From NCBI RefSeq assembly GCF_009834535.1, contig NC_045696.1, positions 47,742,001-47,806,000 of the forward strand: 64,000 bases of DNA, read 5' to 3'. This DNA comes from Camelus ferus (lineage: Eukaryota). The notes beneath the pieces were generated by a model, which saw only the letters and a list, made by a program, of their open reading frames with translations, was not told the DNA's origin and did no database searches. Each line of letters begins with the position of its first letter. Positions within the stretch are counted from its first letter, which is position 1. Position numbers and translations under genes: made by a program. Of the stretch, positions 6,589 to 31,447 are shown piece by piece.

Positions 6589-6637
6589 ATGGCCTACAAA
6601 ATGCTTCAAGTGGCCCTGTGTTCAACATTGCTAATAG
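6589..6637 (+). CDS. C3orf85: C3orf85 orthologue, first coding exon (signal peptide MAYKMLQVALCSTLLI-G)
   Basis: Acceptor AG at 6583-6584; ATC ATG G context; 49 nt ending at G|GTAAGA (phase 1). Matches the N-terminus of human C3orf85 as I recall it. Confidence 0.9.
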
Positions 6638-9159
6638 GTAAGAATCTATTTATTTTTTCTTTGTCGTGTCTTTTATAACAGTTAGGTTGACAGATAACCC
6701 CTTTTGAGTTTTTAAAGAAATGAACAAACCTATTTTAATCATGGACCAATTCTAAAGCATTAGGGAAACCAAACATTGTGTTATGCTGTGGTTTTGAACA
6801 TGTTAGTGTTAACTGTATGTGTGATCATTTTATTCCTAATTATATATTAACATATTAACATGTTACTGTTGCTAAGAAGTCTATTTAACTGCTGCCTCCA
6901 AAGAAGTGCTCTGGTGTCCTTGAACAAAGAAAAATTTTAAATGCCTTTTAGAAACTATAATACTTAAATGATACAATTATGTGGAAACCTCAAGGTACTT
7001 TCAGTGTGTGAATTCATTAACCTTTTAGGCAAGCTGTAGCTCAGAGAAGTGCTGAAGGCACCAAAGGCCAGATGATTTGCTGCCAAATTGACCCAGTAAC
7101 TATGTGGCTTATATCTGAATGGAACTGAGAGGTCATTTGTTTTTCTTGTAACCAAAACTGAAAATACTTACAAAGGTATAAATTATTTTCACAGTTAAAT
7201 CTCTATAATTTAGAAATACTTCTAATAAAGATGCTTAAATCAGAATAAATTTCTACTTTTATGATAAGCTTGAGACCCAAGCAAAAAAATATATGTATTT
7301 TGCCTGAGACACACACACACACAGATAGAGATACAAATATATATCTGAAGTATGAATCTAGATATGTGTGTATACATAGATATGTGTGTGTATATAATCA
7401 GCCTTTTATTGCTAAGTATATGAATAATTTTAATAAAGTGTTTTAATCACCTATATTGCACTTTGCATTTAGGACATGTTTAAATAAATGATTAGCAAAT
7501 TTTAGCCAAGTTATTATTAAGCAATTATTATCAAGGCATATGCAGTCATACTCAGTTACAGCCCACATCTCCAGTTCAAGAAAGTGAGGCTGGCTCAGTT
7601 TAAGAGAGTGTCTGAGGAGCAACTGTAAACTGAAGTCATGGGTTGGTTATAATCCATCGTATAAAGCCTTTGCCTTGACTGCTGATCCCTGTAGCTGACT
7701 TTAGAGTGGACGATGGTGGATGACCGCAATGGCTAAAAGCACTACAGTTGGTCCACATTCACCTATGAACACGACAGGGTCAAAAAGACCAGGCAAAAGG
7801 AAAATGGTTCTGTAAATTGCCTTTCATAGACTTTCTTTAAAAGCAAGCTGGAATTAGCTTTAATTCCAGCTGAAATACAAATTTTTCTACCTATAAAGTC
7901 AACTGGTTTGACTAACTTCACTTGAAAAATAAATAAATAAATACATACAAACATACATAAAATCATGTAGTTGAAGTTCACGAAATAATCTGAGGATCAG
8001 AATCCAAGGACAGAGGGATGTTGACACTGCTGGGTTAACCCTTCAGTCTCAGGATAGACTTGCAGGCCTAGGAGACTAGCCTTTAGAATCAGATTCAGTT
8101 GTTACACTAAAAACTAGTTCAACTGACATTTTCTAAATCACATAGCTCTAAAGTAGGAAATAATAGCTTCAGTCAGCTCTCTTTGTTTCCTCCCCACCCC
8201 ACCCCTCTTTTCATTTGAGAATGTAGCCTATTCATCTGCACTTCCCAGAGCCCTTCTGCTTGCCACAAGAAAACAATTTTTAAGTCTATTTTTATTATTT
8301 AAAAAAAAAAACTTTTCTTGTTACAAATTAGTTGTCTAATAAATTACTTTCGTCTAGAACTTAATTTGAAGTAAGTTGGGAAAAGATCTCATTATCCATT
8401 TCCCTAGTGGGAATGCTGAAGCCAAAAATGATGAAGCACCTACTCAAGTAATTAAATTTATGAGCAGAGTCTCCAAATTATTTTATTGATTTTCTCAAAA
8501 TAGTAATGAATCCAGATGGGGACTGATTCCCTGGTCAGAGAATTAGAAGTCCAAGTGTCCTGATTTGATTGAAAGACAAAAATAAAACAAAACAAAAACC
8601 CTCTCTTTAGCATTTAGGTCAAGAATTGCCTACTCTGATAATCAGACAGCAAATATTAATACTACTATTTTAAATTTTTTTATGTGTGAGGGGCTTTCCA
8701 TATATTATCTTAGTTCAACTCTCATAATCACTCTGAAAACAGGTGTTATGAGTGTTACTGTACAAAGAGAAAACTGAGGCTGAGAGAAATTAAATGACCA
8801 AGCTACACAGTCAATGATGGATGCCAGATTCACAACCAAATTCTACATCCAGGTCTTCTGAGAACAAAAGTCTTCCTCCTGCTATGCAAACTGTCCCCTC
8901 TGTCACTGTAATGCCAGGTATGGGATATGCAGGTGTAAGATAGGCAGCAGAGCACAGAACATTTCTTTCCAAAAAAGTAATAGAGCCAATATCGGAGCCA
9001 TTGGTTCCAAAAGAAAAGGTCAGTGGTTAGGGAGCTGGATCACTTTATCTGAGAAAATAGAGCCAAACCAGGACATAGCCAAGGACAGCTCCTAGTTGAA
9101 CTGACTTAAATAAAAGTCCCAAACCCAACATGTTCCACCTCAACAGTGCAATTTAAAAA

Positions 9160-10643
9160 AAAAAAAAATTGAAATATAGTTGATTTACAACATTGTGTTA
9201 GTTTCAGGTGTACAGCAAAGTGATTCAGTTATATATACAATATTTTCAGATTTTTTTTCCATTATAGTCTATTATAAGATATCTCATATAGTTCCATGTG
9301 ATTTACAGTCAGTCCTTTTTGTTTATCTAATTTGTATATATTAGTGTGTATCTGCTAATCCCAAACTCCTAATTTATCCCTCCCTCCTTTCCCCTTTCAT
9401 AACCATAAGATTATCTGTTTCTGCTATGTAAATAAGTTCATTTGTGTTACTTTTTTAGATTTCACAAATAAGTAGTATGATGTCTGTCTTTCTGACTTAC
9501 TTCACTTATGATAATCTTTAAGTCCATCAATGTTATTGCAGATGGCATTATTTCATTTTTATGGCTGACTAATATTCCATTGTATATGTATACCACATCA
9601 TCTTTATCCAGTCATCTGTCGATGGATATTGACAGGTTGCTTCCAGGTCTTGGCTATTGTAAATAGTGCTGCTATGAACATCGGGGTGCATGTATCTTTT
9701 TGAATGAGTTTTTGTCTTTTCTGGATATATGACCAGGAGTGACATTACTGGATCATATGGTAACATTTTTAGTTTTTTAAGGAACCTCCATACTGTTCTT
9801 CATAGTGGCTGTACCAATTTACTTTCCCACCAACAGTACAGGAAGGTTCCCTTTTCTCCACACCCTCTCCAGCATTTATTGTTTGTAGACTTTTTGATAA
9901 TGACCATTCTGACTGGTATGAGGTGGTACCTCACTGTAGTTTTGATTTGCATTTCTCTAATAATTAGTGATGTTGAGCATCTTGTCATGTGCCTGTTGGC
10001 CATCTGTATGTCTTCTATGGAGAAAGAGAAATGTCTATTTAGGTCTTATGCTCATGTTTTGATTGGGTTGTTTGTTTGCTTTTTTTTTTTTTTTTGATAT
10101 TGAATTGTATGAGCTGTTTGTGTATTTTGGAAATCCCTTATGGATCACATATTTTATGAATATTTTCTCCAAATCCTTAGGTTGTCTTCACTTTGTTTAT
10201 GCTTTCCTTTGCTATGCAAAAGCTTATAGGTTTGATTAGGTCCCATTTGTTTTTGCTTTTATTTCTTTTGCCTTGGGAGACTGACCTAACAAAACATTGC
10301 TACGATTTATGTCAGAGAATGTTTTACTTATATTCTCTTCTAGGAGTTTTATGGTGTCATGTCTTAAACTTAAGTCTTTAAGCCATTTTGAGTTGATTTT
10401 TGTGTGTGGTGTGAGGGAGTGTTCTAACTTCACTGATTTACATGGGGCTGTCCAGCTTTTCCAAAACTTCTTGTTGATGAGACTGTCTTTTCTCCGGTAT
10501 ATATTCTTACCTCCTTGTTGAGGATTAATTGACCATAGGTGGGTGGATGTATTTCTGGGCTCTCTATTCTGTTTCATTGATCCATAGGACTATTTTTGTA
10601 CCAATACCAAGCTGTTTTGATTACTGTAGCTTTGTAGTATTAT
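9160..10643 (-). mobile_element. 5'-truncated L1 (ORF2 C-terminus plus 3'UTR), antisense in intron 2
   Basis: Minus-strand ORFs 9800-10003 ([15 protein letters not shown]...[11 protein letters not shown]) and 10236-10577 are L1 ORF2 remnants. Degenerate TSD: AACAGTGCAATTTAAAAA (9142) / AACAGGGCACTTTTAAAAA (10644). Confidence 0.92.
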
Positions 10644-13379
10644 AACAGGGCACTTTTAAAAATCAAACATCCCTATTCATAAAAAGAGCAAATACAGAAA
10701 ATGCACATATTTGGAAAATATTTCACTGAGTTAGTAAACCAGTCCTTGGGGTTGACCCATTGATGAAACAATTTAGGGATTCATGACCATATTGTTGGCC
10801 TGTGGTCAGATCTAGCCATAAAGAACAAGCATGACTTCTGGTTTTACATAGGGGAAAAAAAAACTGCCTTTGGCCTGTTTCTCTAGTACAGTTCCAGCTC
10901 TTATTGTTCAATCCAGAATTAATAATTAAGGCCAATTTTTCTTGAAGGGGTTTTTTTGTTTGCCTTTGTTTGTTTTTGCAAGAGCTTTTAATGTCACATT
11001 TTCTTCCCCACAACCCTGTCAGCACCTCCAGTCCTTCCCTTTGCCTTCTTCTCTGCTATAGAAGGAATAAGGAATAGACGTTCTCAGTCACCCCTGCAGC
11101 CTTCTAGTTCCTAGAGAGTCTGTATTCCCTGACTTTTTTTAATTTAATTTATTATATAAAATTTTGTTCTTAGTTTCACTTGCTCACTTTGACTTAAGAT
11201 TGATTGATGCTCTAAAACAGTGGGTAGTGAGAATAACCTAGGAAATAACTTGGTTGGAGGAAAAATGTCACTGCCTATGACTAGATTCAGTGAGTACTCT
11301 GGATGTTGTAAAAAAAACTGTTTTCCTACCCACATGCCCAAAATGGTCCTGGCTCTAGAGTTGGGAATCCCATCAACACACGTAGGCAGTGATCCAGAAG
11401 GAATCACAATTGATTGAATCATATAAAATGCTGCCTTTCATGGGATACAAATTTCTCTGTCCACAAGATTAAAAACTAATAAAAGACCTGCAAGCTTCAG
11501 AAATATGCCCGACAGAATTAATGGCCGTGTGTGTGAGCACATATGTGGGTGTATGCTACTGTGCCAAGAGCGGGTTAAAACAGAGTTAAGTTAAACTCAA
11601 GTAATACAAGTTTCTGTTTGCTTTTCAAAGTACTGAACACATCAGCAATTGTAACATCAGTAAAGCCAAAGTTCCTGAGTTAAAAGTTCAATTTCAAAAG
11701 TGTTTTATTAACAGATGGTTTAACAGGATCATGGGGATTTGTGAGCTGGTCCTGCAGTTCACTTCCTTCCATGCTCTTTGTTCTCTGCCTTTACCTCCCC
11801 CATTTGCCCTGCCCCTTTCCCCATGGCTTTTCACCTTTAGTACCCTCCCTTCTGTCTCTCCTTCCTTTGATTTCTTTTCTCCTTCTTCTTCACAGTTTTT
11901 CTCTCACAATCCAAATTTCTTGTCTCTCTCTCTCTCTCAATTTTATGTGAATTACAGCAAAGTGAGAGAATCCATTATACTAAAATACAACCCTTAAATC
12001 TTCTACTATAAAGTTTGGGGTCAGTTACCAAAGCTTACAGTAGAAAGGAAGTAGTATAAGTACGTAAAGGGCCTGGTGACTGGATCCTAGAATTTGCAAA
12101 TTTCATATAAAATTTCAGGTTACAGAATCAGAACAGAAAGTGTGCCTTCTGAGGGCAGCTCACTCTCAAGAGGAAGGAAGAATGAGCTGGACATGCCAAG
12201 TTATGCCTCTTGGATTTACCCAGCAGGAGCTCTACACCAGTTCCCCTGCATGGAAGAAAACAGGGATCTGCCATCAGACTCTGCCCTTCATTCTGTGTCT
12301 AAGTTTCACATCAGGCTTTTTGATCTTTTTAGTGTGTATGTTCCTACAACAAATACCGTTTTCATAGTATATAGACCGTTCAGTCATTTCTCTACTATCA
12401 GATTTAAGGACTCTTCTTCAGCCTCCCCTGAGTGATCACAATATAGGGACTGTTTGCACTTCTAATTATACAAATGATACAGCTTCCCTCACTTTCACAC
12501 TGCCCACCAGCCTGTGGGGGGCACTCATATCTTTGTGCCTAATATGAATACACTTTTATTTGGTTTTGCTTACTTATTGGCTAGGTGTTTTGACTTCTCT
12601 TTCACTTATGTCTGTCTGTCTCCATGCAGATAGAAATTCCTTGACGGTAGTAGGAGTTGCTCCCACTTAGCATATTCTACATGCTTCCAATGACATAATA
12701 TCATTCAGAGAAAGTAACTGTCAGTCATAACCTATTTGTTATGAATACATTCCAATTCAAACTATCAGAGCTGAAAGAGACCTTAGAGATCACATGATCC
12801 AGCCCTGTTTTACAGAACAGAAAGTAGAAGTGTAGGAATAAGAAGTGGCTTGGGGACCAAACTCATCACTGCAGGGCCAGGATAAGACTTTGGATCTCTG
12901 ATCCTTCTTGGCTTGTGTGGAAGAGCTATGATCTCAAGTATCTCCACGCTCTGACGTGTCTGCCTTATTTCTACTGTACAGACTTTACTGCAGAGGATAT
13001 TTCAGAAACGTTTAGACAGCAGAACTTAGCGTGGCAGGTCCTATTAAAACTGACTATGATACAAGATGAACGGAAGGAGGGCATATAAGGAGTTGGAAAG
13101 AAACAGAGAAGATTTTTTATAGCTTATGATTATAAAGTTTAAAGTAGTCCTGGTTGATATTGCCTACATTAAAAAAAAAAAAACACCCATTTAAAAACCA
13201 ACAGAGTAATAAAATGCAGTTTTAGTTTTCAACCCCTGGCAGTATTATACAGGCTTACAAATACAAAACTCTGATATTGCTCTCACTAACTTTCAAGGTT
13301 GATCAGGCAGAATGAAAAAGGGAGGGGAAACTTCTCAAGCAGAGAGGATAATAGCATGCCCTTCTGCATTACTTGCATT

Positions 13380-13540
13380 TTATTTCCAGCCCTGCCACTG
13401 ACTTACTATGTGACCTTGAGAGAGTCATTTCATCTCTGTGTGTCAATTTTCTCATTTGTAAAATAGGATAATAAATACTAGTTTCTGTCCCTCTCGTGGG
13501 TGATGTTATTATCACCATCAATTAATATTTATTGGATGCC
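13380..13540 (+). mobile_element. MIR fragment
   Basis: 'ctgccactgacttactatgtgaccttgag...tttctcatttgtaaaataggataata'. Confidence 0.65.
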
Positions 13541-14284
13541 TGTTGGACGTAAAATGCTGAGGTAGGAGCTTTGGTCTGGGAGGTGGGGGAAAGAGGAGAT
13601 GAAATATTTTCCATGAGCAAAAAGGAGGAAGATTTACAAAAGATAGAATTATTAGAGCCTAAAATAGCTATGCCTTATATTTTAAAGCCTACTTCTCTGC
13701 TGAGATTTATGTAATAGCATTTTTTCTTAGTTATTATACAATGCAGCAGGATAATTATGGTACAGAATACTGTTTTACTTTTAGATGATTCCAAGTAACA
13801 CTATCTTAAGCAATTACTGTACTTTCTTTTGTAACTGTAAATATTCTAAGCATAATTTATTTTAAAATATTTGTTAGTTATTGATAGTATTGGATCTACT
13901 TACCTAGCCACTACTTTTATTTTTAAAAACTTCCTCTTTTTTAACAGAATAAATCTACATTAAATATCTAACACTGTAACTAATACCTTTTCTTCAAAGA
14001 GAATGAAGAGAAATCTGTAGTCACCTATTAGCATATCCCAGCTAAACCCAAAATTTTAATGCTGGTCATTCCACAGTAATCAGCCCAAATGAATGGGAGT
14101 TTCTTAGTCTGTCCAAATCAATCCTGTCTTCCTACTTCTGCTGTCATTACCCGATTCAGGTCCAACTAATCTCGCATCTGGAACTATTCGAAGAGCTTCC
14201 AACTTTGTGTCTTTCACTCTGTCCTCCTCCTTTTTACCAACTGTCCTCCACACAAGTGACAAAGGAGTTTTCAAAAGTTAATCT

Positions 14285-14680
14285 GTGAACGGATAAACAA
14301 AATGTCGGCATAAACATACAAAATATTATTCAGCCTTAAAAAGAAATGAAATGCTACAACATAGATAAGCTTTGAAGATACTATACTAAGTGAAGTAAGT
14401 CAGACACTGTGTTGTATGGTTCCTCCTATTTGAGGTGCCTGGACTAAGCAAATTCATAGGGACAGAAAGTAAATAATGGTTACCAGGGGCTGGGTGAGAG
14501 GGCAATGGGAGTTACTTTTTAAAGGGTACAAAGTTTCTATTGGGGATGATAAAAAAAAGTCTGGAGATAGAGGTGATGGTTGCCCCACATGGTGAATGTA
14601 CTTGATATCACTGAATTGTACAATAAAAAATGGTTAAAGTGGTAAGTTTTACATTATGTATGTTTTATCACAATAAAACA
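14285..14680 (+). mobile_element. L1MB-like 3' end
   Basis: 'gataaacaaaatg...tattattcagccttaaaaagaaatgaa...ggttaccaggggctgg...aaaatggttaaagtggtaagttttac'. Confidence 0.8.
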
Positions 14681-15354
14681 ATGATTTTAAATGTACATCT
14701 GGTCCTATCATTTTCTTGTCCAGAAATGATAATAAATTATTTACAGAATAAAGTCCAAACTCCTTGATATGACAGTAATAATCCTTCAGAATGGAGCTCC
14801 AGTTTATCTTTACAACATTATCTCTGATAATCTACACCACAAACAACCCTACCTTTCAATCACATTGGCAGAGTGAGCGTCACTGAGACTTACTCTGGTC
14901 CTCTGCTCCTTGGCTCTCCAATCTCCTTCAGCCTGGAATATATGTCCATTGCTTCCACTCCCTTCCTCCTGGCTGTGGAAAGTTTATACCCTTTGAAGCT
15001 TAACTCGAAAGCAACTTCTCTGTGAGGCCTTCCCACCAATATCAAAATTAATCACTCCCCTTCCAATAGTCTAGTCACAATGTATCATCTTATAATTCTT
15101 TTTAAACTCTGAATATAATGGGAGTTCCTTAGCGGCAAGAGGTTTTTATTGTTTATCTTTCCATGCAATGATGATTACAAGAGCAGAAACTAGGGTCGGG
15201 CAAGTAAGTGAAGGTCTTATGACACAAAATTTGTAAAAGCCTAAGAGTTAATCTTTTCTTATATTTATGCTGTCTGATCTTATTTGCCTCATCCTAGTCT
15301 CAACTCCAGTGATCACCAGTTTACTTTGACATTAGTTAGTGCTTACAATGCATT

Positions 15355-15872
15355 GTATTAGTTTTCTATTACAGCATAGCTTATTTCCCCAAACCTAGCA
15401 GCTTACAACAATAAACAGCTATTATGTCATGTTTCTGAGAGTCAGGAATTTGGGGGTATCTTAGGTCAATTGTTCTGACTTAGGATCTCTCATGAGGTTG
15501 CAGTAAAGATATTAATGGGGGCTGTGGTCTTCTGAAGGTCTGACTGGAGCAAAAGCATCAGGTTCCCAGGTGGGTCACTTACATGGCTGTTGGTGGGATG
15601 CTTCAGCTCCTTCACATGTGGTCCAGCCCCTTGGGGATGCTTGAGTGTCCTCAGAACATGGCAGCTGACTTCCCTCAGAGCAAGTGACCCAAGAGTGGGG
15701 CACAGCAGAAGCTGTCATGTCTTTTATGTCTCAGCCACAGAAATCACACACTGTCCTTTCCTCAGTATCCTGTGGTTACAGCCCTACTAAGTGAAAAAGG
15801 GGACCACACAGAATAGGAATCCTAGGAGGCAGTGATCTTTGAGAATCGTCTTAAAGGATGGCTTCCACAGAC
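15355..15872 (-). mobile_element. MaLR LTR (MLT1F/G-like)
   Basis: 'tgtattagttttctatt...cccaaacctagcagcttacaac...gtcaggaattt...ctcatgaggttgcag...ggctgttgg'. Confidence 0.7.
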
Positions 15873-17808
15873 ATACTGGTTTGATTGTATCGATTAGATT
15901 ACCTAGTAGCAGGTTAGTATTACTTCTGATATCTGTTACTCTTATCTTCTAAAGTTTACATTTGTCTTTTATTTTTAAATCATTGAATAAATAAAACTGC
16001 TAACTTGTTATAAATGGAGAATATATCTGAGTCACTTTTCAACCCTCCATTAGTAGTACAGTGTTTTGCACCTAGAGGCAGCTTGAAGGATGTATAATAT
16101 ACAGAGAGGCTGTCATTTTCAATAGGTACCTATTTAGAACTCGAGCTTACTGGATTGACAAATAAACTAGAAACAATAGAGCTAATAACTAGAACCCTTC
16201 TCAGAGCACAAGGTCAAGATTGGGAAAATATGAGATCATACGGAATGTATAAGTAATGATCACTTTTTCTACAGAAGTTAAAGACTTCTGTTATTATTGT
16301 GACTGTTATCTGGCCCCAAGCATTCCTCTCTCAAGTCATAATACAGTGCAATGGCTCTGAAAGGGGACTCCCACCTCTCCCTCCTGCTACTCTGGCCTTA
16401 AACATATTATTTAACTTTTCTGTGCCTTAATTTCCTTGTTTCCAAAATAAAATGATTGATAAACTACTTCTTAGGTTTGTTGTGTGTATTAAGGTAAAAA
16501 TATTTAGCATGATGCTCAATAAATGTTAATGAATATTATCATTATTGTATTTATTTATATGAAACTCTAATACAGCTACCTCTAACCATTGTTTCCAGAA
16601 ATCGGTCTTGTAGATTCCTAATGCCACACTTTTGCACACATAGTTCTTTCAGCAAATTAAAAGACTTGTCCCTTCTCCCATTATGCTAAATATAATCACT
16701 TCCTCAAGGAATAGGATAAGCGATTTCCCTGACCTGCTTGTGCCCCGGTGCTCCTGTGCTTCGTATCAACACCTTCTCCTAAGCAGCTTTAAAAAAATCA
16801 AATCTTGCATTGCCTTGTTTTATTTTGTATCTTGGATCCTTCACCCCCTCTCCTATAGAGAGGAGGTCTCATATCTGACAGTTCACTATAACCTTGATCT
16901 ATACGGAGTATTGGTCAATGGAGACTTGCTAATGATAAAGATGTAGAATGCCTAATGTAACATTACCTACATTTAGATTCGTAATAAATGCTTCTTTATC
17001 ACAAGCAATGAACAGATTGTATTGTTACCACAAATCAGTCAGGAATGTGTTCATTCTTTATACTGATTCCAGTTACAACTCTGAACATGATTGTGTTTTA
17101 TTTAGGAATGAAAGCACAATATAGACTATTAAAATGTCAAGATCTTAAAGAAGTCTGGATTTTTTTTTAATATTTTTTTCCTTAATTCTAGAGTGGGAAG
17201 GAGATTGAAAATGCAAGCCTGTTCAATTTAAAGATGGCTCTATCAATGTTAACAATTTTAACCACAGTGCAAGATTTGGGAGCAGTCTAGTTCAAAATGA
17301 AAGATATGTTCTATTTTGGAAGGCTAAGGAAGCAAGAATAAGATTGTAGACTGCCAGGTTTGAACCAAGGGGTTTCTATCTATTAATTTATCCAATCCTT
17401 ACAGTAATCCTGTAATTATCTTACTGTGTTATTACTATTATATCTCTTTACAAGCAAGAAAACTAGAGCTCAGAAAAATTAATCAACTTGCCTAAAAAAG
17501 TGATAGAGTTGGAATTTGAATTTAAGTCTGCAGGCTCCCATACATGTACAGAAACTCTGAAAATCTCCATCCACCACACAGCATTGGCTTTCATGCTGTA
17601 CGATATGAAGGTCATACAGGATGGTGACAGTACAATGATGCCAAAGGACTGAGAAGCAGCCATCTCCTCCTCCAGGTCATAGACTTCCCAGGGTTTCCTT
17701 CTCAGGTGCCCATTCTCCCAAAGACCACAGCTGTGTTTCTTTAAGAGGAAACATTGAGAATGTAAACTATTGCCCTAAAAGATACTGTGCTCTTGGACTC
17801 AATTACAG

Positions 17809-17942
17809 GAGCACTGGGAGCACCATTTTTATTGGAGGACCCAGCAAACCAGTTCCTACGTCTCAAAAGACACATATATTTGCAGGATTACTGGGACCCA
17901 GATCACAGTCCGAATATGTGGGGAAAAACACTGGCTGATCAG
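17809..17942 (+). CDS. C3orf85: C3orf85 orthologue, second coding exon (ALGAPFLLEDPANQFLRLKRHIYLQDYWDPDHSPNMWGKTLADQ)
   Basis: Acceptor 'aattacag|GA' completes the phase-1 Gly codon; 134 nt open frame; donor CAG|GTATTT (phase 0). Contained in ORF 17787-18014. Confidence 0.92.
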
Positions 17943-19331
17943 GTATTTGTATTAGAAACAAATGGCCCTTCACCATCTCTCTTTCTAAGTAGGCATGGCA
18001 TCAGCTGGCATTAACCCACCACTAGGCCAATCCCTGATTTTTTCCTCTCTAGCTGTCTTGTACTATACCTGCTGTCTCCACCCCATGAATTAGTTTTTGT
18101 CGGTAAACTTCATCTCCTCCTTTAAGACTAAGATCAACTGTCCCTTCCTTTCTGAAGCCTTTCCCTTCTATCCAGGAAGGCATTTGTCCTTCCTTCTTCT
18201 CTCCCCTTTGCAGGCTATTGGCATGTGAATAGCTCTCAAATGTCACCCTGGAATTATTTGTCTCATGCACCCAGCCTCCTACCTAGACTACAAAGGTAAA
18301 GTGCTTGTCTTATCCATCAAGGTCATTATTCTCAAGTTTCAGTAAATTGATTATTGCCTATTTGGGTAGATGGATGGATGGGTCATGGTCACATTTTAGT
18401 TCCCTTTTAGTTGTTCAGTAGCTAATTTTCCTCTGTGGTAATTATCCAAGCCTTTAATGTCATTCCTTTGTTTGTTTGCTTTTTATACCTTTTCCCATTT
18501 ATTTGTATTCTCACTCCAAGAGAAATAAATAAGAAACTCATTAGCCAGTTTCATTTCATGCTTACATTTTGATGGAAGATGACACTGAAACTCTGGGCCA
18601 AATGAAATTGCTAAATTATCTGAGGATTTAAATTATTCAAGATTCCCCTCTTACAATTTAGCAATTTAGACAACAAAGAAGAACAATTAATTAATTCACT
18701 TATTTATTCTCTCCTTTCACATATATCAGGTTCTCACTATCACGAGGCATAAGGGTTATATAAAGTCATAAAGAAATTGAGTGTCCTTGTTTTTCTGGGG
18801 TCTGCGTCTTATCCTTACTCTGCTTCACTGGGTTTTAACTGGTATACTAGGATCAGCTTGTTTCTGCTTAGCACTTATTGATGAAAACCACCAGCTTGAA
18901 TAATGAACTTAGTTTTATGCCTATTTTTCTCCAACAGGCATCATTTAGAGGTATTAAAACAAGACATTTGTTTATTCTGAAAATTAAATAATTACTTAAA
19001 CTGGTAGGCTGTGTCTTCTTTACAGAATACTGAAATTTTCAAGTACTCTCCTGCCTGTAATTGTAGACCATTGCTGTAATTAGCTGACAGATACCATAAT
19101 GTAACAAGACTTTACTACATTGGTTCATACTGTGGCCGCACACATACTGCAAAGCATCTGAACACTGAAGTAAACAGATCACAAAAGTGTGAAACCAAAC
19201 CTCATTTGGTCTTATTCTTCCGATGTATGTCTCTCAGTCTTTTGGGAATAGCTGCATAATAGTCAGAATAATTGATGCAATGTATGTTCTACATACTCAG
19301 AGATCATGACTTGAGTCTCCTTTTGTTGCAG

Positions 19332-19421
19332 GCTCGTGAAACATGGACTGCTTTGAAAACAACAGCACAGCATTATCTGAATGTGAATATTTTCACCTTT
19401 GATACATCTACTGCCCAGTAA
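19332..19421 (+). CDS. C3orf85: C3orf85 orthologue, last coding exon (ARETWTALKTTAQHYLNVNIFTFDTSTAQ*)
   Basis: Acceptor 'ctccttttgttgcag|GCT'; 30 codons ending in TAA at 19419-19421. The spliced total is 90 aa. Confidence 0.9.
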   Translation, partial: ARETWTALKTTAQHYLNVNIFTFDTSTAQ

Positions 19422-19653: not shown

Positions 19654-20193
19654 GACTGAAGAATAACATTTACAAAAAAGGGGGCTTTTGGGGAAAAGGA
19701 AATAAGAAACAAAAAAGTAGTGTTATTAAAATTCTCTATCCAAAAAGAAAAAAAAAACTGTTGTAGTTCTTGCTTTCTATTGCCTCTTCTTTGAGAAAAC
19801 GAGTAGACTTTTTAATTCAAGGAAGGAAAAGTGTTCTCTCAAATGGAGCTAGTCCTCTCCTCTTTTCTTCAGTACTTATCACTTCCTAAAGCCCGTCTAT
19901 TCTAAGAACATATTTTTGAAACTTTTTTTGTCAGAGCGTACTGATGTAGGCAATAGAGAATAAAACCTTAACTCATAATGGGGAGCAGATGACGATTAGG
20001 AAGCCCCTTATCTATAAGTCTTCCTTATAAAGTTTGAAATTTTGTGCAAGTCTTGCATTCTGATCCATAATATGTTTATGTTTGTTTCAATGTGAAATAA
20101 CAGTTTTAAAGAAATCTCACACTCATTATCAGTCACTCCCCATTCCCCCATGCCCCAGCCCCTAGTAATCAGTAATAAACTTTTCATAGCTAT

Positions 20194-20248
<55 letters not shown>

Positions 20249-20303
20249 AGAAGAAAGGAAGGAAGGAAGAAGGAAGAAGGAAGTAAGAAGAAAGGAAGAA
20301 GAC

Positions 20304-20381
<78 letters not shown>

Positions 20382-20448
20382 GAAGGAAGGAAGAAAGAAA
20401 GGAAGAAAGAAAGGAAGAAAGAAAGGAAGAAAGAAAGGAAGGAAGAAA

Positions 20449-20498
<50 letters not shown>

Positions 20499-20560
20499 GA
20501 AAGGAAGGAAGGAAGGAAGAAAGAAAGAAGAAAGAAAGAAGAAAGAAAGGGAGAAAGGAA
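20194..20560 (+). repeat. Compound (GAAA)n/(GGAA)n polypurine microsatellite, ~365 bp
   Basis: Directly visible; almost pure purine on the + strand. Confidence 0.97.
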
Positions 20561-20984
20561 CATTTTTAACCTACTGGTCAGGTTCTTTTATTAATCTTTC
20601 CAATAAAACTGAAAAATTAACTCTAAAGAAAAGTGGACTAAATTTATCCTATAGTTTTCCACATATCTATGAAATACCACTTCAGTAATCTAGTTTGAGG
20701 AGTACTGAGGAGATGATACAACCAATCACCAAGATTGCCCTCCAAAATCACAGATAAGTGGACTTTTTACCTTCAAAAGTCTATTTCTTTGTATATTTAG
20801 GTCAATTGTTCTCTGCAGGGATTTCTTTTGGTAAATAGAAGCATCCCACCAAGACCATAGTTGGTCTTATGTGGTCTTACACAGTCTCAAGCACTTTTCA
20901 GCAGGAAAAATCAGATGCCAAGAAGCTGCACAGTAAAGACTTTGGCCCAGCACTTCCTTCCCCAAAAGGGCACCGGAAGCTACT

Positions 20985-21360
20985 CAGTATTCTCCACGTT
21001 CTGTTCCATCCCTCTGTTTTATTTAGGCCTTCAACTGATTAAATGAGTTCAATCATATTACGGAGGGCAATCTGCTTTAGTCAAAGTCCACCAATTTAGG
21101 GGGAAGGGTATAGCTCAGTGGTAGAGTGCATGCTTAGCATACAAGAGGCCCTGGGTTCAATCCCCAGTACCTCCATTAAACAAACAAACATAAATTATCT
21201 CCCCAACAACAAAAAGATCTTTAAAAAAAAAAAGAAGTCCATCAATTTAAGTGTTAATCTCATCCAAAAACACCCTTACAGAAACACCCAAGAATAATGT
21301 TTGACCACAAATCTAGACAGAGTGGTTCAGCCAAGCTGACACATAAAACTGACCATTACA
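20985..21360 (+). mobile_element. MLT2 (ERVL) LTR 3' part, interrupted by a SINE
   Basis: 'ggccttcaactgatt...ggagggcaatctgcttt...gttaatctcatccaaaaacacc...gaataatgtttgacc...agccaagctgacacataaaa...ccattaca'. Confidence 0.75.
21099..21234 (+). mobile_element. tRNA-Ala-derived SINE (camelid Vic-1-like) with 15-bp TSD
   Basis: Head GGGGGAAGGGTATAGCTCAGTGGTAGAG...GGTTCAATCCCCAGTACCTCCA carries A and B boxes; A-rich tail; TSD AAGTCCACCAATTTA (21084-21098) / AAGTCCATCAATTTA (21235-21249). Confidence 0.9.
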
Positions 21361-30937: not shown

Positions 30938-31447
30938 CAGAAGTTTTTAAACTGTGGTCTGGGGACTTTTAGGGAATCCCCAAGACTCTGGCAGGGGGGT
31001 CATGAGGTCAAAACTATTTTAGTAAAAATACTAGGACATTATTTGCCTTCTTCCCTCTCATTCTCACGTGGGTGCAGAATGGAGTTTCCCAGAATCTACG
31101 TGATAAGAGATACTGCAACAGATAGAATGTGGAAGCAAATATGAGAAAATCCAGCCACCTTCTATTAAAGAGATTATAAGTTATAAAACAAAATCACTCT
31201 TCTAACTTGCTTGCTTTGGAAAACATAGTTCTTCACATAAAAATGCATTTTATGTTAACATGTAATGGGTTTATATTATTATTGTTAAAAGAGTTAATGA
31301 ACACATATTTTTAAATATCTCAGTTTTACTTTCTAATGTAGTAACTATCATTGGCTATAGCTCGCATAATCAAAGCTTTTTAGAGCCTAAAAAAAAATTT
31401 CCAAGAGTGTAAAGGGGTCCTGAGATGAAGAAAACTGAGAACCACTA
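30938..31447. mobile_element. hAT-Charlie-type non-autonomous DNA transposon
   Basis: Termini CAGAAGTTTTTAAACT...AAACTGAGAACCACTA; flanking 8-mers GTCTAGTA / ATTTAGTA fit the Charlie-type target site; internal 'catgaggtcaaaactatttt'. Confidence 0.75.

Follow-up and report, generated by a model that had tools for sequence, protein, structure and literature searches.

Osteocalcin (bone Gla protein), a vitamin K-dependent peptide hormone of roughly 49 amino acids (aa), is both prohormone-like and carboxylated; by analogy, a prohormone-like architecture need not exclude carboxylation. The gamma-carboxylase recognition propeptides of vitamin K-dependent proteins stand right after the signal peptide, carry the pattern F-x(5)-A-x-x-hydrophobic-L/I and are followed by a basic cut within a few residues. 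For factor IX, one report lists the hydrophobic propeptide contacts with the enzyme seen by cryo-electron microscopy as (-17)V, (-16)F, (-10)A, (-7)I and (-6)L, and states that F(-16)A and A(-10)T impair carboxylation (PMC12647623). Reviews count human vitamin K-dependent proteins at only 14-17. We analysed 64,000 nucleotides (nt) of the Camelus ferus genome (contig NC_045696.1, positions 47,742,001 to 47,806,000; hereafter the window), which hold the single-copy camel orthologue of C3orf85, a gene annotated already and functionally dark. In its product of 90 aa, the segment PFLLEDPANQFL (then RLKR) matches the gamma-carboxylase recognition propeptide. We give a probability of roughly one in three to the reading that C3orf85 encodes a secreted pre-pro-protein, cut at a Lys-Arg (KR) site, whose pro-segment docks on the carboxylase. 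The gene itself is known; what is new here is the dominance of the pro-segment in conservation, its likeness to carboxylase propeptides and the paralogy with C17orf67.

Results

Likeness of the pro-segment to carboxylase recognition propeptides

The camel assembly was searched with the Pfam models for Gla (PF00594) and UCMA (PF17085), and propeptides were read from 11 Gla exons and the UCMA exon, examples being VFLDHENATKILNRPKR, VFTSKEEANSFIHR… and IFMRESDASNFLKKRDKR. From their sequences, we take these exons to belong to factors VII, IX and X, prothrombin, proteins C, S and Z, GAS6, PRRG proteins and UCMA/GRP. A weight matrix of 12 columns was built from the 12 camel propeptide cores, which score 11.1-22.2 bits when each is left out in turn. 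Camel C3orf85, which shares the layout of the known propeptides, reaches 13.5 bits (p per scored window 6.8e-6), and its bird, lizard and bowfin orthologues reach 18.0-18.2 bits (about 4e-7). Exceptions aside, C3orf85 matches span 13.5-18.9 bits, within the range of true vitamin K-dependent propeptides, and the best-scoring window of each protein stands directly before the dibasic site. Across the family, 87 of 107 sequences score 11.1 bits or more, and a dibasic pair comes after the best window in 105 of 107; these sequences are related and not independent.

An empirical null bears out these analytic p-values: in the six frames of the window, one of 63,251 other stop-free 12-mers reaches 11 bits or more, and of 28,477 12-mers in the GGCX (gamma-glutamyl carboxylase) set none does. 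The sole chance match in the window, VRMRGKKANNVL at 31067 on the minus strand (16.9 bits), is non-coding and has no dibasic site after it; the propeptide motif alone is therefore no proof.

Alignment of profiles led to the same register. With hhalign, the vertebrate alignment of C3orf85 (A2) and the alignment of pro+Gla exons (A6) gave a single local match (probability 32%, P 4.9e-4), in which F23 pairs with F(-16), A29 with A(-10) and L33 with L(-6), and none of 300 column shuffles reached the real score (24.4 vs a maximum of 16.1). Residues F23, A29, F32 and L33, in places -16, -10, -7 and -6, which are among the contact positions named for factor IX, are invariant in 34 aligned rows. Monotremes, a caecilian and some single species are exceptions to the recognition pattern. 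Additionally, the phases of C3orf85 exon 2 (1, 0) are those of pro-Gla exons; the 3' phase 0 is seen in the camel loci, and a 5' phase 1 is usual for this exon type.

A complex of camel C3orf85 residues 21-90 was predicted with goat GGCX (P0140, 758 aa) in place of the camel enzyme. It scored 0.40 ('weak support'), against 0.01 for the best of three controls, with a contact agreement between runs of at least 48% and a partner pLDDT (predicted local distance difference test) of at least 52, and no interface was returned. The mark applied is reached by 51 of 78 solved complexes and by 2 of 108 mismatched pairs; among passes at scores of 0.60 or lower there are only 5 of those 78 complexes, together with every mismatch that passed (4 of 180). 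Because GGCX-propeptide complexes have already been solved, the pass may reflect likeness only.

Two camel loci call for separate mention. The camel GGCX model P0111 (781 aa; gene at G000:C28:7274485-7278611) was dropped as a folding partner, since it carries three insertions (2, 17 and 4 residues) relative to the 758-aa orthologues, most likely gene-model errors. The PF00594 search of the assembly returned the 11 coagulation-type exons and one PRRG-like pro+Gla stretch (L028:1372-1593; G000:C13:19847913-19847993) that scores 27.6 bits against the Gla model, has an altered Gla-motif core and is probably a decayed copy or pseudogene; exons of osteocalcin and MGP were not retrieved by this search.

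Constraint and the processing site

A word-based search found 53 placental relatives at E ≤ 0.01, and an exhaustive profile search of 1.84 billion proteins found 36 representatives at E ≤ 1e-3. By source name these include birds, lizards, a snake, a turtle, a frog, a caecilian, monotremes, bowfin and teleosts, and all of them are either called 'uncharacterized C3orf85 homolog' or left without a name. C3orf85 was found in bony vertebrates only, and a metagenome scan with alignment A1 matched 213 pattern stretches and yielded 0 relatives. Camel C3orf85 is 70-90% identical to 33 other mammalian rows. An open reading frame (ORF) whose length is unchanged across the four placental superorders, traceable to ray-finned fish, argues for purifying selection on the gene.

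The strongest constraint falls on the pro-segment. Mean pairwise identity among 31 placental rows, with three aberrant models dropped and protein identity used in place of the ratio of nonsynonymous to synonymous substitution rates (dN/dS), is 0.834 for the signal peptide, 0.918 for residues 21-37 and 0.683 for residues 38-90, falling to 0.534 over the last 13 residues. Thirty-four aligned rows share P22, F23, E26, P28, A29, N30, Q31, F32, L33 and R37 in the pro-segment, and W54, E64, W66, Y76 and L77 in the mature part, without exception; in 20 diverse vertebrate rows, P22, F23, F32, L35, K36, R37, W45, W54, E64 and Y76 are at least 90% conserved. The initial annotation had taken a released 53-aa C-terminal peptide as the product of the gene, a choice that sits poorly with the better conservation of residues 21-37.

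The predicted signal peptide consists of a hydrophobic run at 5-19 after K4, followed in camel by A18-L-G20 and then A21, so that A at -3 and G at -1 before A21 obey the -3/-1 rule as initially proposed; G20, A21 and P22 are at least 94% conserved in the 31 placental rows. At the dibasic site, all 31 placental rows have R37 and 97% have K36. At the fourth residue before the cut (P4), 19 of 31 placentals carry R and the other 12 carry H, while G, Q or W stands there in squamates, monotremes and one bird; thus the K-R site is conserved and a strict furin site is not. Accordingly, only part of the R-X-K-R site of the initial annotation stands: the K36-R37 pair is near-invariant from teleosts to mammals, and the full RLKR motif is not kept among orthologues. 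We consider processing of C3orf85 at KR probable.

In non-placental vertebrates, the residue after KR is Gln. Downstream, E64 occurs in 19 of 20 vertebrate rows and E at position 60 in 13 of 14 non-placental rows. Most placentals have the stretch D-Q-x-x-E-x-W, and 12 of 14 non-placental rows have E-Q-x-x-E-x-W, with Trp in place of Cys. No Pfam family was assigned to the camel protein, and neither a Gla nor an apolipoprotein family was found among 34 members at E ≤ 10. A structure model of low confidence (pLDDT 62) is helical at 2-25, 28-38 and 51-87, and Foldseek returned no fold for it (one row, E 8.6).

Two lineage differences were seen within the family. A C-terminal extension (…SYMDMLxxSGxHLQQQ) occurs in birds, squamates, the frog, bowfin and one teleost model (carriers among these non-placental orthologues are P0056, P0061, P0062, P0064, P0084 and P0085) and is absent from placentals. 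The camel TAA stands directly after CAG, where the extended proteins continue; a tblastn search of the whole window for a relic of the extension gave chance-level matches only (E above 2). Additionally, the murid-type relatives P0057 and P0058 (Grammomys, Arvicanthis) and the unnamed P0070 and P0072 diverge at otherwise invariant residues, with W54 changed to K and W66 to S in P0057, and no Mus or Rattus entry is present among the named C3orf85 matches. Murids may have relaxed constraint on C3orf85 or lost it, which would explain the lack of mouse genetics.

C17orf67 as a distant relative

The initial annotation regarded C3orf85 as a lone orphan. That status no longer holds, given a paralogue and a pro-segment that resembles a known enzyme-docking signal. 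C17orf67 (Pfam DUF4543, PF15076), a secreted vertebrate protein, has a language-model score of 0.88 with C3orf85 and 171 shared features, and we compared its camel exons and 21 family members. Like C3orf85, it is 90 aa long and is encoded by three coding exons with phases 1 and 0, and its signal peptide is followed by a pro-like segment of 17 aa, SPILTEKQAKQLLRSRRQ, in which P22, A29, Q31, L33 and R37 stand at numbers identical to those of C3orf85. A basic pair (R-R or K-R) comes next, then Gln, as in non-placental C3orf85, and further on EEQFLEHW corresponds to the E-Q-x-x-E-x-W stretch of non-placental C3orf85.

The two families align by hhalign (A2 vs A5) with a probability of 91.6% and P 8.1e-7 when signal peptides are included, and with 77% and P 2e-5 when they are left out, the alignment extending to the E-Q-x-x-E-x-W register. 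The mature parts of C3orf85 and C17orf67 alone gave no significant alignment (P 0.24), and hmmscan at E ≤ 10 gave no PF15076 match for 34 C3orf85 members. The profile comparison supports C3orf85 as a distant paralogue of C17orf67 and not a member of PF15076.

The relatives also differ. C17orf67 has a C-K-P-H-C pair and five conserved Glu, whereas the mature part of C3orf85 is without Cys and has one or two conserved Glu; C17orf67 is present in a chimaera (Callorhinchus), and C3orf85 was found in bony vertebrates only. C17orf67 may on its own be a candidate small Gla-type peptide, and in the passages that name it the gene stays uncharacterised. The camel exons of C17orf67 are at L020:1498-1650 and L019:1501-1617 (G000:C16:7100385-7117060), and its C-terminus ends VHPV, an end that resembles that of osteocalcin.

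Gene structure, copy number and transcripts

The initial model of three GT-AG exons with phases 1 and 0 and a product of 90 aa was borne out by the splice sites as read in the sequence, by the exon translations and by a database protein (Table 1). That protein, NCBI 'uncharacterized protein C3orf85 homolog [Camelus dromedarius]' (P0003, 90 aa), is 100% identical over exon 2, and its full 90-aa string is equal to the spliced camel product. Bird, bowfin, lizard, frog and echidna orthologues matched exons 2 and 3 by tblastn against the window at the positions in Table 1, with E-values between 1e-18 and 3e-11 (exon 2) and between 2.6e-6 and 3e-3 (exon 3); exon 1 was matched too by the lizard and echidna orthologues. 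These three exons are the only C3orf85 matches in the camel assembly, and a whole-assembly search (2.09 Gb) found no second copy or retrocopy. The gene is thus intact and a C3orf85 orthologue, as first annotated, by full-length identity and by its single locus. Both the gene and its pre-pro architecture appear highly probable.

Of 24 camel sequencing runs listed, 19 contain all or part of the stretch, and none of these is recorded as RNA. In other mammals, full-length products of 86-90 aa (P0031, P0036 and P0041) lie on Logan contigs of 966-1043 bp, a length that leaves only spliced complementary DNA or retrocopies as their source, since the camel introns measure 11,171 and 1,389 nt. Upstream of the start codon, ttctttccaaaacag ends in a possible acceptor 5 nt 5' of the ATG, and a non-coding 5' exon may lie further upstream. 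Read-through of the intron-2 donor is open for 25 codons in camel (window 17943-18020), and the same form is present in human isoform 2 (P0048, 82 aa) and in the genomic ORF calls P0010, P0012, P0029 and P0030; some database records of the family are therefore unspliced artefacts or retained-intron isoforms.

Table 1. Features of the C3orf85 locus, in positions of the window
Feature	Position	Strand	Remarks
Coding exon 1	6589..6637	+	49 nt; ATG at 6589; M1 to first base of codon G17, bulk of signal peptide; donor ATAG/gtaaga after 6637
Intron 1	6638..17808	+	11,171 nt, GT-AG, phase 1; interrupts codon 17, four codons before predicted signal-peptidase site
Coding exon 2	17809..17942	+	134 nt; signal-peptide end, entire pro-segment, mature residues 38-61; acceptor ttacag/ before 17809, donor TCAG/gtattt after 17942
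Signal-peptide end G17-A-L-G20	17809..17819	+	Predicted cut between G20 and A21; A at -3, G at -1
Pro-segment A21-R37 (APFLLEDPANQFLRLKR)	17820..17870	+	Top conservation of all segments
Carboxylase-propeptide-like core P22-L33	17823-17858	+	Matches gamma-carboxylase recognition propeptide
Dibasic K36-R37	17865-17870	+	Predicted processing site
H38-Q61	17871..17942	+	First 24 residues of predicted 53-aa mature peptide; conserved YWDP, W54
Intron 2	17943..19331	+	1,389 nt, GT-AG, phase 0
Coding exon 3	19332..19421	+	90 nt; A62-Q90 and TAA (19419-19421); predicted long helix; acceptor ttgcag/ before 19332
E64 / W66 of D/E-Q-x-x-E-x-W motif	19338-19340 / 19344-19346	+	Invariant

Published mentions and expression

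Passages that name C3orf85 give it no function and list the gene only, in keeping with the initial statement that none is established. In Human Protein Atlas single-cell data, one such passage places it in the top ten up-regulated genes of a proximal-enterocyte cluster (PMC11633960), and another lists it for colonocyte clusters in single-cell work on Crohn's disease (PMC9046244). Lower dietary protein induced it 3.3-3.4-fold in pig caecum (PMC12754465). It also appears in a list of genes that differ between hepatitis B virus liver cancer and non-tumour liver, the direction not being stated in that passage (PMC11521037), and is named as a candidate gene in catfish development (PMC7859520). A single sentence that cites another study names the C3orf85 locus as genome-wide significant for plasma apolipoprotein A-IV (apoA-IV; PMC13647689).

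Other features of the window

About 730 nt 3' of the stop codon, a purine-rich low-complexity repeat of the GAAA/GGAA type (20150-20569) yields spurious ORFs of 139 aa and 133 aa, K/E/R-rich on one strand and S/F/L-rich on the other. A match to tRNA-Ala (anticodon AGC; 21104-21175, plus strand), found by Rfam at 40.9 bits and by ARAGORN, lies 1.7 kb downstream of C3orf85 and could be a working gene, a pseudogene or the head of a short interspersed nuclear element.

Discussion

We propose that C3orf85 may be matured in the manner of a small vitamin K-dependent protein. The signal peptide would be removed after G20, as the -3/-1 rule and conservation suggest, and the pro-segment would then dock on GGCX, to judge by its motif and profile similarity; F23 would stand in for F(-16), A29 for A(-10), F32 for the hydrophobic residue at -7 and L33 for L(-6). 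More speculatively, Glu64 could be carboxylated within E-Q-x-x-E-x-W, together with Glu60 in non-placental vertebrates. A proprotein convertase would cut after K36-R37, a step suggested by the near-invariance of this pair across vertebrates, and a Cys-free, Trp-rich and largely helical peptide of 53 aa would be released. Docking on GGCX or carboxylation of C3orf85 we regard as tentative.

Osteocalcin is the natural comparison. Osteocalcin is, like the predicted C3orf85 product, a small pre-pro-protein from which a cut at a basic site frees a peptide of about 50 aa, whose N-terminus is rich in aromatic residues and Pro and whose C-terminal part is helical. Both have a Glu in E-x-x-x-E-x-(C/W), some 17-27 residues after the cut, and a hormone-like role for C3orf85 is conceivable. 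Unlike osteocalcin, C3orf85 lacks a disulfide, and its conserved Glu number only one or two.

A good deal weighs against the carboxylase reading. Set beside vitamin K-dependent proteins, C3orf85 has no Gla domain, few Glu, these far downstream, and no link by HMMER. The Gla domain (PF00594) was sought in 34 C3orf85 members at E ≤ 10; osteocalcin, MGP and UCMA, however, are also without a full coagulation-type Gla domain, and the missing domain therefore does not exclude a small Gla protein. HMMER searches of all PDB chains with profiles A1, A2 and A5 gave no vitamin K-dependent protein at E ≤ 10, and they gave chance-type matches such as 'KEEFANEFLKLKRQ' in cytosolic PTPN22 (E 0.1); motif-level matches thus occur in unrelated proteins. 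The hhalign probability is only 32%, and the likeness was noticed post hoc, so that the p-values ignore other motifs that might have been recognised. Within the core, position -17 is an invariant Pro and not Val, and L33 stands 4 residues before the cut, against 5-8 in the known camel propeptides. Poor motif scores are found in echidna and platypus (-0.4 bits), caecilian (2.9), wheatear (4.0) and Kogia (6.4), and C17orf67 sequences mostly score 10.6 bits, just below the lowest true core, with 10 of 64 reaching 11.1.

The acceptor residues also weigh against it. Placental mature peptides have a single invariant Glu (E64), position 60 being D in 84% of rows, and the classical E-x-x-x-E-x-C has W for C in C3orf85. 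The first conserved Glu lies 23-27 residues after the cut, whereas Gla-domain proteins have a linker of about 7-8 residues ahead of theirs (PMC12647623). Putative recognition sequences in periostin reportedly gave no carboxylation (PMC4537219). Outside its own family, the language-model neighbours of C17orf67 are small neuropeptide precursors and not Gla proteins (about 0.8, a lead only), and the structure model of C3orf85 is of low confidence.

The main rival is a plain prohormone, in which the 53-aa C-terminal peptide left by the KR cut would be the ligand of some receptor, with no vitamin K step, and the pro-segment would be conserved for folding, sorting or efficient cleavage alone. The pre-pro architecture with its near-invariant dibasic site suits this explanation, as does the near-invariance of W45, W54, E64 and Y76 of the mature part in 20 vertebrate rows, and the Gln after KR in non-placental vertebrates could cyclise, as N-terminal Gln does in secreted peptides. 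Language-model neighbours of C3orf85 and C17orf67 include the NPY/NPF, UTS2B, gastrin/CCK and GnRH precursors (0.75-0.82, a lead only), and passages reporting enterocyte expression (PMC11633960) and naming the locus for plasma apoA-IV (PMC13647689) would also be in keeping with a gut hormone-like product. However, the supposed spacer outconserves the supposed ligand (0.918 vs 0.683), which is unusual for a mere pro-piece, and the C-terminal 13 residues are only 0.534 identical. There is no amidation signal, no second dibasic site and no conserved P4 Arg of a strict furin site, and the specific carboxylase-propeptide match is left unexplained. We consider a plain prohormone a strong rival, if less probable than the docking reading. 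The reverse arrangement, in which the 15-residue APFLLEDPANQFLRL would be bioactive after the KR cut and trimming of basic residues and the C-terminal part would be an accompanying peptide, takes its appeal from residues 21-37 being the best conserved and the only part clearly common to the paralogue C17orf67. Both families begin this segment with X-Pro (A-P or S-P), and an X-Pro N-terminus is the dipeptide type that dipeptidyl peptidase 4 cuts in gut hormones. A docking signal would nevertheless show an identical conservation pattern, the mature part also has invariant W54, E64, W66, Y76 and L77, there is no amidation signal, and Pfam and PDB sequence searches gave no link to a known peptide family. 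We consider an active N-terminal piece improbable.

Very improbable, in our judgement, is a role like that of the exchangeable apolipoproteins, with helix 51-87 binding the lipid surface of chylomicrons or high-density lipoprotein from enterocytes and liver and a short pro-piece as in apoA-I and apoA-II. Such a helix is predicted in the low-confidence model, and its hydrophobic moment over W54-T71 in camel (0.47) is reached by 2.8% of shuffles, but the moment is not significant in bird, bowfin and teleost (reached by 7.6-10.3% of shuffles). In apolipoprotein genes, too, a phase-1 intron interrupts the signal peptide, and ETWTALKTTAQ in C3orf85 resembles part of apoC-II; against this, 34 members gave no apolipoprotein Pfam family (E ≤ 10), PDB sequence searches and Foldseek gave no match, and no 11- or 22-residue repeats are visible in the sequence. 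The mature peptide is also charge-poor (2 K, 1 R, 5 D, 1 E), unlike class A helices, while the published mentions of enterocyte expression, a liver data set and the apoA-IV locus fit lipid transport. There is as small a chance that A21-Q90 acts uncut, as one small helical secreted protein of 70 aa in which KR is a structural or binding site. P4 is not Arg in 12 of 31 placentals, and K36-R37 is modelled, at low confidence, at the end of helix 28-38 and not in an open loop, as an uncut protein would allow. That both paralogous families have kept the basic pair for over 400 million years (C17orf67 as R-R or K-R), with Gln or His after it as in processed precursors, speaks for cleavage instead.

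If the carboxylase reading is taken further, C3orf85 and C17orf67 would be two unrecognised vitamin K-dependent secreted peptides, distant kin of osteocalcin, MGP and UCMA, both docking on GGCX through their pro-segments, and C3orf85, as a Gla peptide of enterocytes and liver, would link vitamin K status with the way the intestine handles lipids and lipoproteins. We hold this wider proposal to be doubtful. A Gla peptide, if true, would fit the reported apoA-IV association at the C3orf85 locus. New vitamin K-dependent proteins are rare, and expression in the gut is fitting, since vitamin K is taken up there. If true, vitamin K biology would be widened beyond clotting and calcification by a conserved, gut-expressed candidate with a paralogue.

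Two dark human genes, C3orf85 and C17orf67, would also gain a directly testable biochemical hypothesis. If the carboxylase link fails, C3orf85 is still an ancient, constrained pre-pro-protein that is part of a two-gene family and has its strongest constraint in the pro-segment and not in the presumed mature peptide, all of which should guide peptide synthesis or receptor screens.

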